Below, one piece after another: positions 1 to 9,997 of a DNA stretch of 64,000 nt. The notes under the pieces were generated by a model that was given only the letters and a program-made list of their open reading frames with translations, was not told the origin of the DNA and did not search any database. Both the position numbers and the translations under genes were made by a program. The DNA is taken from assembly GCF_003334335.1 (NCBI RefSeq), contig NZ_QOWQ01000026.1. One strand, given 5' to 3'. The number at the start of each line of letters is the position of its first letter. Positions within the stretch are counted from its first letter, which is position 1. The DNA is from Escherichia coli (GTDB taxonomy: Bacteria; Pseudomonadota; Gammaproteobacteria; Enterobacterales; Enterobacteriaceae).

Positions 1-77
1 AGTTATCGTGAGAGTAATTCATCGGCACGTTAAATCATATCAGGCGTAATACCACAACCCTTAAGTTAGCGCTTATG
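1..77 (-). mobile_element. insL: IS186-like insertion sequence, terminal ~77 bp only (window begins inside the element); includes terminal inverted repeat and the first 7 codons of the transposase
   Basis: Minus-strand reading of 1-77 gives CATAAGCGCTAACTTAAGGGTTG... followed by ATG (rc of 20-22) encoding MNYSHDN..., which I recognise as the IS186 terminal repeat and InsL N-terminus; abuts a GC-rich GGGG-N4-CCCC flank at 77-90; not verified by alignment. Confidence 0.65.
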
Positions 78-199
78 GGGTAAACCCCCGGGCGCGTTCC
101 TTTATCAAGATGACGTTCGAATATTCCGGCAGGTGCAGTTTGTTTATTCCAGAAAGGCGTTGAGCGCGTATGAATATAATTCTGTGGGATTTGAAGCAT
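78..199 (-). pseudogene. yeaR: yeaR 5' fragment (DUF1971/TehB-like protein), intact for 41 codons then interrupted at the IS186 junction
   Basis: ATG at 199 (minus) encodes MLQIPQNYIHTRSTPFWNKQTAPAGIFERHLDKGTRPGVYP, then the frame runs into the IS end and stops at 34-36; the expected family continuation (RLSVMHGAVKY...) is absent. Confidence 0.6.
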
Positions 200-265
200 C
201 CTTTTCCCTCCTTCGGTGAATGCGCTGAAAACGGTTTATTCCAGCCGTTTCAGGGTACGCCTGAT

Positions 266-288
266 AATTTGCATTTTAAATACCATTT
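266..288. promoter_or_regulatory. NsrR-like 11-1-11 inverted repeat in the yeaR promoter region
   Basis: AATTTGCATTTTAAATACCATTT resembles the NsrR consensus AAGATGCATTT-N-AAATGCATCTT; lies ~70 nt upstream of the yeaR start. Confidence 0.4.
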
Positions 289-371
289 ATTGGTTACTTT
301 TTAGCACCATATCAGCGAAGAATCAGGGAGGATTATAGATGGGAAGCCCGCGACAACGCGGGCTGAAAGCA

Positions 372-1079
<708 letters not shown>

Positions 1080-1136
1080 TTAGAAAGGAGAAAATCAGGT
1101 TTTAACCTGATATCAACCCGATAATTGAATCATTAA

Positions 1137-2060
1137 TCAGGCATGCTCCAGTGAAAAATTCGGGTAGTGCTCGGCAAAATACTGGCGTAAAAATTCTACC
1201 GTTATCCGCACTTTCGCTGACGTCGCCAGCCTTGAAACATAAACGGCCCAGACGTTCGCTGGCTGGTAATATTCCGGTAGCACTTGCACTAAATGACCAC
1301 TGGCAATGTTTTCGCTAACATCCCACCAGGAACGCAGAGCAATCCCCTGCCCATCGAGACACCACTGATGGACAATTTCTCCATGATTAGACGACAGTGG
1401 GCCGGTGACTTTAATCGCATGGGGGCCTTCTTTATTGCGTAATTGCCAGACACCAAAAGGATGATCGCGCTCTTTAATGACCAGGCACGGCAATGCAGAA
1501 AGATCGGTTAAATGTTTCGGCGCGCCATGTTGCGCAATAAATTCCGGCGACGCGCAGAGAATACGGTAATTGGTCGCCAGTTTGCGGGCGATTAAATTAG
1601 GGGCGATGTCATCGCCAATGCGAATATCGAGATCGACACCTTCATTGACCAAATCGACCAGTCGGTCTTCCACATCAAAACGTAATTCCAGTTGCGGATA
1701 CGCCTTCGCCAGCGCTGATAACGCCGGAGCCACCACCTGTCGTCCAAAACCAAAGCTGCTGATAATACGCAGCATCCCCTGCGGCACCTGACGCACGTCA
1801 GAAAGTTCGTCCATCATCTGACCGACATCCTGCAAAATCCGCTGCGCCCATTCATAAATCCGCTCTCCTTCTTCGGTAATGGTGACGCGGCGGGTGGTGC
1901 GGTGTAACAACACCACGTTTAGCGTTTGCTCCAGCAAGGCGATGCGCTTGCTGACGAACGCCGGTGAAACGCCCAGTTCTTCCGCCACGGCGGCAAAACC
2001 AGCCCGGCGAGCCACCAGCATAAAGACGCGCAAATCATTCAGCAGCGGTAAATTATTCAT
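1137..2060 (-). CDS. dmlR: LysR-family transcriptional regulator of dmlA
   Basis: ORF track 1137..2081; N-terminal HTH; start trimmed to the internal ATG (MNNLPLL...) giving 307 aa; divergent from dmlA. Confidence 0.9.
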   Translation of the reverse strand: MNNLPLLNDLRVFMLVARRAGFAAVAEELGVSPAFVSKRIALLEQTLNVVLLHRTTRRVTITEEGERIYEWAQRILQDVGQMMDELSDVRQVPQGMLRIISSFGFGRQVVAPALSALAKAYPQLELRFDVEDRLVDLVNEGVDLDIRIGDDIAPNLIARKLATNYRILCASPEFIAQHGAPKHLTDLSALPCLVIKERDHPFGVWQLRNKEGPHAIKVTGPLSSNHGEIVHQWCLDGQGIALRSWWDVSENIASGHLVQVLPEYYQPANVWAVYVSRLATSAKVRITVEFLRQYFAEHYPNFSLEHA

Positions 2061-2162
2061 GATTCGTGTTTTATGTTTCACCAGTTACGGGGATTAATTC
2101 CTTTTCAGTCAATTATAGGATGGTGATGTTGTCAATTTTGATGGTCAGGAAGTGAGAACCCA

Positions 2163-3248
2163 ATGATGAAAACGATGCGTATTGCTGCGATCCCGGGAGA
2201 CGGGATTGGCAAAGAAGTCCTTCCTGAAGGGATTCGCGTGTTACAGGCTGCCGCTGAGCGCTGGGGCTTCGCCTTGAGTTTTGAGCAAATGGAGTGGGCG
2301 AGCTGCGAGTATTACAGCCATCACGGTAAAATGATGCCGGACGACTGGCATGAGCAACTTAGCCGTTTCGACGCCATCTATTTTGGTGCCGTCGGCTGGC
2401 CGGATACCGTTCCGGACCATATTTCGTTGTGGGGTTCGCTGCTGAAATTTCGTCGTGAATTCGACCAGTACGTCAACCTGCGCCCGGTTCGTCTCTTTCC
2501 TGGCGTTCCCTGCCCGCTGGCGGGAAAACAGCCTGGCGACATCGATTTTTACGTGGTCAGGGAAAACACCGAAGGCGAATATTCCTCGCTCGGCGGTAGA
2601 GTGAATGAAGGTACAGAGCATGAAGTCGTCATTCAGGAATCGGTATTTACCCGCCGTGGTGTCGATCGCATTTTGCGTTATGCCTTCGAACTTGCGCAAA
2701 GCCGTCCACGTAAGACACTAACTTCTGCCACTAAATCGAACGGTTTAGCCATCAGCATGCCGTACTGGGATGAGCGAGTGGAAGCAATGGCCGAGAATTA
2801 CCCGGAGATCCGCTGGGACAAGCAGCATATTGATATTCTCTGCGCGCGTTTTGTGATGCAGCCGGAACGATTCGATGTGGTGGTGGCGTCCAATTTGTTT
2901 GGCGATATCCTTTCCGATCTTGGCCCGGCCTGCACCGGCACCATTGGCATTGCCCCATCCGCCAACCTGAATCCGGAACGCACTTTCCCGTCGCTCTTCG
3001 AGCCTGTCCACGGTTCCGCGCCGGATATCTACGGGAAAAATATTGCTAACCCTATCGCCACGATTTGGGCCGGGGCAATGATGCTCGATTTTCTCGGCAA
3101 TGGCGATGAGCGTTTCCAGCAAGCGCATAACGGTATTCTGGCAGCAATTGAAGAAGTGATTGCTCACGGGCCGAAAACACCTGATATGAAAGGCAATGCC
3201 ACCACGCCACAGGTTGCCGACGCGATTTGCAAAATTATTTTGCGTTAA
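2163..3248 (+). CDS. dmlA: D-malate dehydrogenase (decarboxylating), isocitrate/isopropylmalate dehydrogenase family
   Basis: ORF track 361 aa; IPMDH/tartrate dehydrogenase-type sequence. Confidence 0.95.
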   Translation: MMKTMRIAAIPGDGIGKEVLPEGIRVLQAAAERWGFALSFEQMEWASCEYYSHHGKMMPDDWHEQLSRFDAIYFGAVGWPDTVPDHISLWGSLLKFRREFDQYVNLRPVRLFPGVPCPLAGKQPGDIDFYVVRENTEGEYSSLGGRVNEGTEHEVVIQESVFTRRGVDRILRYAFELAQSRPRKTLTSATKSNGLAISMPYWDERVEAMAENYPEIRWDKQHIDILCARFVMQPERFDVVVASNLFGDILSDLGPACTGTIGIAPSANLNPERTFPSLFEPVHGSAPDIYGKNIANPIATIWAGAMMLDFLGNGDERFQQAHNGILAAIEEVIAHGPKTPDMKGNATTPQVADAICKIILR

Positions 3249-3438: not shown

Positions 3439-4884
3439 TTGGTTTTGCTGGCAATGGGACTGGTGATTTATTTAGCCACCAGTAAATACGGCAATATTCG
3501 TCTTGGCGAAGGAAAACCGGAATACAGCACGCTCTCCTGGCTGTTTATGTTTATTTGTGCCGGTTTAGGTTCTTCTACGCTTTATTGGGGGGTTGCTGAA
3601 TGGGCCTATTATTATCAAACACCTGGATTAAATATCGCACCGCGTTCACAACAGGCACTCGAATTTAGCGTTCCCTACTCTTTCTTCCACTGGGGCATCA
3701 GCGCCTGGGCAACTTATACGCTGGCCTCATTAATCATGGCTTATCACTTTCATGTGCGGAAAAACAAAGGTCTGAGCCTTTCCGGCATTATTGCTGCTAT
3801 TACCGGCGTTCGCCCGCAAGGCCCATGGGGAAAACTGGTCGATTTGATGTTCCTGATCGCCACTGTCGGCGCACTGACCATTTCCCTTGTTGTTACCGCA
3901 GCAACCTTTACCCGTGGGCTTTCCGCGCTGACCGGTTTACCCGATAACTTCACCGTGCAGGCATTTGTGATCCTGCTTTCCGGCGGCATTTTTTGCCTAA
4001 GCTCGTGGATTGGTATCAACAACGGTTTGCAACGTCTGAGCAAAATGGTTGGCTGGGGCGCGTTCCTGCTGCCATTACTGGTGCTGATTGTCGGCCCAAC
4101 CGAATTTATTACCAACAGCATCATCAATGCCATCGGCCTGACCACGCAAAACTTCCTGCAAATGAGCTTATTCACCGATCCGCTTGGCGATGGTTCATTT
4201 ACCCGCAACTGGACCGTTTTCTACTGGCTGTGGTGGATCTCATACACCCCTGGCGTAGCAATGTTTGTCACCCGCGTTTCCCGCGGTCGTAAGATTAAAG
4301 AAGTTATCTGGGGACTGATCCTCGGCAGCACCGTCGGTTGCTGGTTCTTCTTTGGCGTAATGGAAAGCTATGCCATTCATCAGTTTATCAATGGCGTAAT
4401 CAACGTCCCACAGGTGCTGGAAACACTGGGCGGCGAAACAGCTGTACAGCAAGTTCTGATGTCGTTGCCAGCCGGTAAATTGTTCCTCGCCGCATACCTG
4501 GGCGTGATGATTATTTTCCTTGCCTCGCATATGGATGCAGTGGCCTACACCATGGCGGCGACCAGTACGCGTAATCTCCAGGAAGGTGACGATCCTGACC
4601 GTGGGCTGCGTCTTTTCTGGTGCGTGGTGATCACTCTGATCCCGCTTTCCATCTTGTTTACCGGTGCTTCGCTGGAAACGATGAAAACCACCGTCGTGCT
4701 CACAGCCCTTCCCTTCCTCGTCATTTTACTGGTGAAAGTCGGCGGGTTTATTCGCTGGCTGAAACAGGATTACGCCGACATTCCGGCTCATCAAGTTGAA
4801 CATTATCTCCCGCAGACACCGGTTGAAGCCCTGGAAAAAACGCCAGTGCTCCCTGCAGGAACCGTATTCAAAGGCGACAACTGA
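3439..4884 (+). CDS. yeaV: BCCT-family transporter (betaine/carnitine/choline type)
   Basis: ORF track 481 aa, polytopic membrane protein; immediately upstream of yeaW/yeaX. Confidence 0.9.
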
Positions 4885-8266: not shown

Positions 8267-8291
8267 AAAAAAAACGCCGGATTAACCGGCG
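8267..8291 (-). terminator. rho-independent terminator downstream of fadD, in the rnd leader
   Basis: Minus strand CGCCGGTTAATCCGGCG hairpin followed by T8. Confidence 0.65.
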
Positions 8292-8311
8292 TCTGACGAC
8301 TGACTTAACGC

Positions 8312-9997
8312 TCAGGCTTTATTGTCCACTTTGCCGCGCGCTTCGTCACGTAATTCTCGTCGCAAAATTTTTCCGACGTTAGATTTCGGTAACTCATCAC
8401 GAAACTCCACCAGCTTCGGTACTTTGTATCCCGTGAGCTGACGGCGGCAAAAAGTCACCAGTGACTCTTCGGTAAGCGATGGATCTTTTTTCACTACGAA
8501 GATTTTCACCGCTTCACCACTGGAGCCGGAAGGTACGCCAACAGCCGCGACTTCCTGTACGCCAGGATGCTGCATGACGACATCTTCAATCTCGTTGGGA
8601 TAGACGTTAAAACCGGAAACCAGAATCATGTCTTTTTTACGATCGACAATGCGCAGGAATCCTTCTTCATCCATTACCGCGATGTCGCCGGTGTGTAACC
8701 AGCCATTTTTGATGATTTCATCGGTAGCATCGGGACGCTGCCAGTAACCCAGCATCACCTGCGGTCCTTTGACACAAAGCTCACCCGGTTGACCTGGTGG
8801 TACTTCATTATCATCATCATCCACCAGTTTGGCTTCCGTCGACGGCACCGGCAAACCGATGCTACCACTATGATAATCAATATCATATGGGTTAACGCTG
8901 ACCAGCGGCGCACACTCGGTAAGGCCATAGCCTTCCAGCAGATACTGTCCGGTCAGTTTCACCCAACGCTCTGCCACCACTTGCTGCACTGGCATCCCAC
9001 CGCCTGCGGAAAGATGCAGACTGGAGAAATCCAGCTGCTGGAACTCTTTATTGTTCAGCAACGCATTGAACAAGGTGTTAACGCCCGTGATAGCGGTAAA
9101 CGGATATTTCGCTAACTCTTTTACCAACCCTGGAATATCGCGCGGGTTAGTGATAAGCAGGTTCTGCCCACCCAGTTCGATAAACAGCAGGCAGTTAATG
9201 GTCAGGGCAAAAATGTGATACAGCGGCAGCGCCGTCACCACCAGCTCTTTGCCCGGATGCAACAGCGGACCATAGGTCGCGTTAACCTGTTCCAGGTTCG
9301 CCAGCATATTGCGGTGAGTCAGCATCGCGCCTTTCGCCACACCAGTGGTGCCGCCGGTGTATTGCAGAAAAGCTAAATCTTCCGGCACCAGTTCGGGTTT
9401 GACGTACTGCATCCGGTAGCCGTTATGCAGTGCGCTACGAAATGAAATGGCATCTGGCAGATGGTATTTCGGCACCAAACGCTTGATGTATTTAACAACG
9501 AAATTGACTACCGTGCCTTTTGCCGTAGATAGCTGATCGCCCATACGGGTCAGAATTACGTGCTGAACGGCGGTTTTATCAACCACTTTTTCCAGTGTGT
9601 GAGCAAAGTTAGACACGATAACAATCGCCGATGCGCCGCTATCGTTAAGCTGATGCTCAAGCTCACGCGGGGTATACAACGGGTTAACGTTTACGACGAT
9701 CATCCCGGCACGCAAAATGCCAAACAGCGCCACCGGATATTGCAATAAATTAGGCATCATCAACGCAACGCGATCGCCTTTCTTCAGCCCCAACCCTTGT
9801 TGCAAATAAGCGGCAAACGCGCGACTGCGTTCTTCCAGCTTGCGGAAGGTCATTACCTCCCCCATATTCACAAACGCAGGTTGATCGGCGTAGCGCGCGA
9901 CCGACTGCTCAAACATATCTACCAGAGATTGATAACGGTCAGGGTTGATCTCCGTCGGAACGTCCGCGGGATAACGGTTAAGCCAAACCTTCTTCAA
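8312..9997 (-). CDS. fadD: long-chain fatty acid-CoA ligase
   Basis: ORF track 8312..10063; trimmed to TTG start at 9997 (read as [10 protein letters not shown]..., 561 aa) with GAGGTGA SD; AMP-binding motifs. Confidence 0.9.

Follow-up and report, generated by a model that had tools for sequence, protein, structure and literature searches.

IS186 in yeaR of an Escherichia coli strain, at an apparent natural insertion hot spot

An IS186 end within yeaR

The window analysed here is the whole stretch of 64,000 nt from contig NZ_QOWQ01000026.1 of Escherichia coli assembly GCF_003334335.1, and its features are collected in Table 1. At its left edge the minus strand holds the start of yeaR, abutted by one end of an IS186 element. 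From the ATG at 199 the first 41 residues encoded, MLQIPQNYIHTRSTPFWNKQTAPAGIFERHLDKGTRPGVYP, are residues 1–41 of MG1655 YeaR (b1797); their 122-nt coding sequence matches b1797 without a difference, and leuE, dmlR and dmlA come next, as in K-12. In MG1655 yeaR is intact, with 119 codons, and is followed by yoaG; the initial annotation had assumed an intact yeaR-yoaG operon in the reference, and NC_000913.3 confirms it. No full-length 119-aa YeaR ORF is present in the window, where the frame departs from yeaR after codon 41. The match to MG1655 yeaR covers 78–199 and ends at 77, which bears out the proposal that the gene is interrupted after 41 residues by an IS186 end and excludes that full-length YeaR reads through positions 1–77.

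Past the junction the yeaR frame continues for a short distance into the element, and the resulting hybrid ORF stops 12 nt ahead of the insL ATG. Public assemblies contain 2485 blocks in which the exact 54-aa hybrid product has been called as a gene. RefSeq treats the fragment in relatives as a pseudogene ("DUF1971 domain-containing protein", incomplete, missing C-terminus), and the insertion explains the pseudogene annotation of yeaR in the source genome. Precomputed matches assign the distal YeaR fragment to PF09313, TehB-like; full-length YeaR matches the TehB N-terminal model NF008992 weakly, at 42 bits, below the cut-off.

Table 1. Positions of features in the 64,000-nt window
Feature	Position	Strand	Remarks
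IS186 transposase-proximal (left) end	1..77	-	100% identity to MG1655 IS186A bases 1-77; window edge cuts the element
insL transposase gene start	1..22	-	ATG at 22-20; MNYSHDN, first 7 codons, then window edge
Hybrid 54-codon ORF	35..199	-	41 YeaR residues + 13 IS-encoded residues ISANLRVVVLRLI; stop 37-35
IS186 23-bp terminal inverted repeat CATAAGCGCTAACTTAAGGGTTG	55..77	-	exact match
One copy of 10-bp target-site duplication GGGTAAACCC	78..87		direct repeat in relatives, single copy in MG1655
yeaR 5' fragment, codons 1-41	78..199	-	100% identical to NC_000913.3 1879827-1879948
Predicted NsrR operator of the yeaR promoter AAATGGTATTTAAAATGCAAATT	266..288	-	exact match to the yeaR site in Table 4 of PMC5320621; intact
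Rfam RNAs (sroD, cspA-type thermoregulator leader, RyeA/SdsR pair)	8268-8353, 27402-27862, 43350-43494		Rfam

The identity of the element could be tested in the window for 77 of its 1339 bp. On the minus strand these matched bases 1–77 of the annotated MG1655 IS186A at 77/77 positions, and they were also 100% identical to the 1339-bp copies at yeaR in CV601gfp and BL21(DE3). Searched across 5426 complete E. coli genomes, the 77-mer turned up 8459 times, in 2188 of them, so that it is the end of a repeat element and not a chance match. Reading down the minus strand from 77, we find CATAAGCGCTAACTTAAGGGTTG, 32 bases, and then ATG AAT TAC TCT CAC GAT AAC (MNYSHDN), the ATG at window position 22 being position 56 of the element. 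An exact copy of CATAAGCGCTAACTTAAGGGTTG lies at both ends of every full element examined, including MG1655 IS186A, B and C. The earlier reading of this end, as an IS186 terminal inverted repeat followed by the start of insL, is upheld by the identity to IS186A and by the placement of the insL ATG. In relatives the full-length insL product has 370 aa; it scores 133.3 bits on the IS4 family transposase model NF033592 of NCBIfam (cut-off 115) and also matches Pfam PF01609 DDE_Tnp_1.

The three native elements of MG1655 (IS4 family, under the NCBI PGAP name "IS421 family") have the same inverted repeat and insL start as the window. Full copies at the yeaR site are 1339 bp long and 100% identical to all three, and are likewise flanked by a 10-bp duplication; the yeaR copy differs in location only, its target having GTGG rather than GGGG on one side. 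The remaining ~1262 bp of the element would lie to the left of the window.

The window starts with exactly 77 bases of the repeat, and 77 is a common largest k-mer length of short-read de Bruijn assemblers. It probably begins at a draft contig end caused by a break in IS186, and the insertion accounts for the likely contig break at yeaR. The same number could be taken as a mark of misassembly, with an IS186 read end chimerically joined to yeaR at the contig boundary, since it suggests a short-read contig end in a repeat. We regard such a join as almost certainly not what happened here: the identical junction recurs in thousands of public assemblies and in 197 complete genomes that were finished independently, relatives carry the expected 10-bp duplication at the other end, and a contig that ends k bases into a repeat is the normal sign of a real repeat junction.

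Target site, intactness and strain background

The uninterrupted site in MG1655 reads GCGT GGGTAAACCC CCGGG. Both copies of GGGTAAACCC flank the 1339-bp element in CV601gfp, BL21(DE3), O157:H16 98-3133 and O169:H41 2014EL-1345-2. All three native MG1655 copies, IS186A, B and C, lie in cGGGG-N6-CCCCg with 10-bp duplications (GGATCACTCC, GGAGTAATCC and GGATAATTCC). Set in the register of these native K-12 sites, the yeaR target is cGTGG-GTAAAC-CCCCg, that is GTGG-N6-CCCC, one base off the published GGGG(N6/N7)CCCC, with 7 of the 8 clamp bases matching. Lee et al. 2016 (PMC5009759), who described that motif, found insertion in either orientation and up to 16 independent insertions at one site in mutation-accumulation lines; 7 of their 59 IS186 sites departed from the motif by one or two bases. 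A GGGG-N4-CCCC site had been proposed for the junction. The GC-clamped palindromic target of IS186 type holds, and the motif itself is to be corrected to GTGG-N6-CCCC with a 10-bp duplication; the former reading arose because the last IS base, a G, abuts GGG in the window.

A side observation concerns IS186C of MG1655 (2514273–2515617), where 31 nt of the left flank, outside the IS, resemble the yeaR flank. In a megablast comparison the IS186C flank plus IS end aligned to the yeaR flank over 81 nt at 88.9% identity. This likeness could be chance, or a target preference that reaches beyond the GGGG/CCCC clamps.

IS4-family DDE transposases act by cut-and-paste, with staggered cuts in the target. 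We put at roughly 95% the probability that an IS186 of 1339 bp, with its 23-bp inverted repeats and insL, transposed into the yeaR coding sequence with insL in the yeaR direction. The proposed course of events is that the IS186 transposase would target GC-clamped palindromes (GGGG-N6-CCCC) and cut with a 10-bp stagger; insertion at cGTGG-GTAAAC-CCCCg would have duplicated GGGTAAACCC, and either orientation would be possible because the target is palindromic.

We infer a complete element in the source genome. The window itself, with 77 bp of the element and one copy of the duplication, fits intact and altered cases alike, and the IS186 at yeaR might have been truncated or interrupted in the source, or followed by an IS-mediated deletion or rearrangement. 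Derivatives of this kind do exist among genomes with the same 54-aa hybrid ORF: one carrier (L022) has IS1 genes within IS186, another (L028) has an IS3-family (rve) transposase gene there, and in a third (L024) IS186 is reduced to a 51-aa transposase stub joined directly to yoaG, with the distal part of yeaR lost. A further carrier (L027) has an IS1 in dmlR. Strain 14EC047 (NZ_CP024155.1; locus L015, 3051–4386) has at the yeaR site, in the window's orientation, an IS186 of 1336 bp annotated as frameshifted; its far-side junction is kept, and the IS then continues directly into the middle of yeaV, joining at window position 4311. The IS-adjacent deletion, from yeaR to yeaV, comprises ~4.2 kb, and the 5' part of yeaR, leuE, dmlR, dmlA and the start of yeaV are gone. 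Among the complete genomes as a whole, near-side and far-side junction counts for the window's orientation agree at 196–197 (196 records in 197 genomes on the near side and 197 records on the far side), so nearly all carriers keep both ends, and the full copies examined directly were 1339 bp and identical. A remnant in the source is thus quite unlikely, and a complete element remains the preferred reading.

The insertion is, as had been noted, the only structural departure from the K-12 map in the window: positions 78–64000 run collinear with MG1655 1879827–1943750 from end to end, apart from a gap of 1 bp. This sole indel is a 1-bp deletion of C at window position 29483 (NC_000913.3 1909233), in the yobH-kdgR intergenic region. 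Of the 338 mismatches in the alignment, the first 29 kb hold 6 and the remaining 35 kb 332 (~0.95%); the change is sharp, a mosaic boundary close to 29,000 near yebO-mgrB-yobH, the earliest clustered mismatches lying at 29029–29455. Such a boundary would be typical of homologous recombination between E. coli lineages. An Rfam scan of the whole window returned only the RNAs expected for the K-12 region.

The insertion had also been taken to mark the source as a K-12 derivative or relative. The derivative part of that claim fails against the 338 mismatches and the presence of the insertion in 452 of 5426 genomes of many backgrounds; K-12 ancestry is not to be deduced from an insertion that complete genomes of so many backgrounds carry. 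Sequence comparison instead points to a related non-K-12 strain whose haplotype from yeaR to yebO is K-12-like.

Occupancy of the yeaR site among complete genomes

The 5426 complete RefSeq E. coli genomes were queried with 100-bp junction sequences. IS186 was found at the yeaR site in the window's orientation in 197 genomes (196 records), and in the opposite orientation in 255 genomes, including REL606, BL21(DE3), E. coli C and ATCC 8739; in 4963 genomes the site was uninterrupted. The empty-site search gave exactly 452 records with two separate half-matches, in agreement with 197 + 255. The yeaR site is thus occupied in 452/5426 genomes (8.3%), about a fifth of those bearing IS186, and accounts for ~5% of all IS186 copies; the 8.3% is not a population frequency, the collection being rich in clonal laboratory strains (E. 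coli B, K-12 derivatives) that inflate these fractions.

Queries with the far-side junctions gave raw counts of 271–295 and 472, versus the 197 and 255 expected from the near side. The excess, of 74 and 217 records, consisted of cross-matches at 80–90% identity to another IS186 locus (for example at 2.499 Mb in DH1) with a flank like that of yeaR, the likeness noted above for IS186C, and after their removal the far-side counts were 197 and 255. Structures with the same IS end on both sides of yeaR had been considered for the excess, and were rejected once it was traced to the other locus.

The opposite-orientation group uses the same nucleotide position and has the same duplication as the window-orientation group. 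As carried by REL606 and BL21(DE3) (E. coli B), E. coli C and ATCC 8739, yeaR::IS186 occupies the site seen in the window, with the same 10-bp duplication and an identical element, and differs in that insL is antisense to yeaR, whereas in the window insL runs in the yeaR direction.

Local haplotypes were compared with the state of the site. Six genomes were listed at 100.0% identity to the window over 28–52 kb; five are empty at yeaR and the sixth, EC416, has the opposite orientation, so that none of the six (0/6) carries the window's allele. In the 2.8 kb beside the junction, the window's exact haplotype occurs with every state of the site: 5 genomes have it with an empty site, O157:H16 98-3133 has it with IS186 inserted the opposite way (as does EC416 on a haplotype one SNP removed), and the carrier L024 has it with IS186 oriented as in the window. 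The window's orientation also occurs on haplotypes that differ by 11 SNPs (O169:H41) and by 39 SNPs (L023 and L030), the nearest SNPs lying 48–57 nt from the junction. Within K-12, CV601gfp carries yeaR::IS186 at the very nucleotide and in the orientation seen in the window, and the MG1655 site is empty; CV601gfp is 100% identical to MG1655 over 8 kb in which the window has 133 mismatches. The copies at the yeaR site of CV601gfp, BL21(DE3), O157:H16 98-3133 and EC416 show 100% identity among themselves and with IS186A, B and C.

Since both orientations and the empty site occur on one haplotype, and the window's orientation occurs on several, we interpret the yeaR site as a recurrent hot spot. 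On these comparisons it appears to have been hit many times independently in E. coli, as a natural hot spot for IS186.

A different account would have a single ancient insertion at yeaR, later flipped in place through the 23-bp inverted repeats (by recombination or transposase), and spread or lost through homologous recombination and precise excision. Both orientations do share the exact position, the 10-bp duplication and an identical IS, which one event plus inversion would equally give, and the first 29 kb of the window are a widely shared K-12-like haplotype, a sign that recombination moves the region between lineages. However, all IS186 copies are 100% identical, and the identity of the yeaR copies is therefore uninformative on common descent. 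In K-12 the insertion was acquired during laboratory history (the site is empty in MG1655 and occupied in CV601gfp and PFM2), and de novo insertions arose in evolved MG1655 lines (PMC6307192). IS186 has been documented to enter its palindromic target either way, in one case up to 16 independent times (PMC5009759), and a single orientation is found at yeaR on flanks with SNPs only 48–57 nt from the junction. We consider a single origin very unlikely, and repeated insertion the better account of the yeaR site.

Published cases comport with repeated insertion. Lee et al. 2016 (PMC5009759) reported an extra IS186 in yeaR of PFM2, an MG1655 derivative, and Hoeksema et al. 2018 (PMC6307192) reported IS186 insertions in the gene from several MG1655 lines evolved under antibiotics. 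These alleles share element and gene with the window and differ from it in background, which in the window is non-K-12. The allele described here is in this sense ordinary: yeaR::IS186 is already known and published, and is here found in a non-K-12 background. A parallel in behaviour is the lon promoter hot spot, where a new IS186 insertion was found with position unchanged and opposite orientation (PMC3045373). There, as at yeaR, insertions fall repeatedly on one position of a GC-rich palindrome, in either orientation. The lon insertion differs in being intergenic and clearly selected, with a strong phenotype (Lon deficiency), whereas the yeaR insertion is intragenic, in a gene without established function or phenotype.

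Probable consequences for yeaR-yoaG

In CFT073, yeaR and yoaG are NsrR-regulated and ~160-fold nitrate-induced (PMC5320621). The operator-like sequence upstream of the interrupted gene in the window is intact and corresponds to the yeaR site of Table 4 of that study, which is a published predicted NsrR operator. The nitrate/NO-responsive yeaR promoter would now drive the 54-codon hybrid ORF and continue into the IS on the insL sense strand, and the 78 remaining yeaR codons (42–119) together with yoaG would be displaced by 1.34 kb from that promoter. To judge from this arrangement, the most likely outcome is a null allele of yeaR together with polarity on yoaG. A loss of yeaR-yoaG function had been suggested in the initial annotation; the interruption after codon 41 is plainly seen, and the loss itself may reasonably be supposed.

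The yeaR site might also be more than a passive hot spot, either because IS186 inactivation of yeaR-yoaG is repeatedly selected or because the yeaR promoter couples insL to nitrosative stress; we hold this to be unlikely. Bearing on selection, such inactivation was reported as enriched in enrofloxacin-selected MG1655 lines, and a fifth of the IS186-bearing complete genomes are occupied at the site. Bearing on the promoter, the NsrR/NarL-controlled, nitrate/NO-induced yeaR promoter would read straight into insL in the window's orientation. The predicted fold of the yeaR-to-insL read-through RNA contained no IS10-like fold-back hiding the insL start, and was no more stable than shuffled sequences (z = +1.41). 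A scan of window positions 1–420 for consensus promoters and terminators found none, a result that is uninformative for an activator-dependent promoter. If the promoter coupling were real, genome-wide IS186 activity could be coupled to nitrosative stress.

As a recurrently used insertion site, yeaR offers a clean natural illustration of IS186 target specificity, with a one-base variant of the motif, both orientations and multiple haplotypes. Its three states, empty, forward and reverse, can also be typed by PCR and so serve as a cheap strain marker. For the strain itself, the insertion means the probable loss of an NO/nitrate-induced operon without known function.
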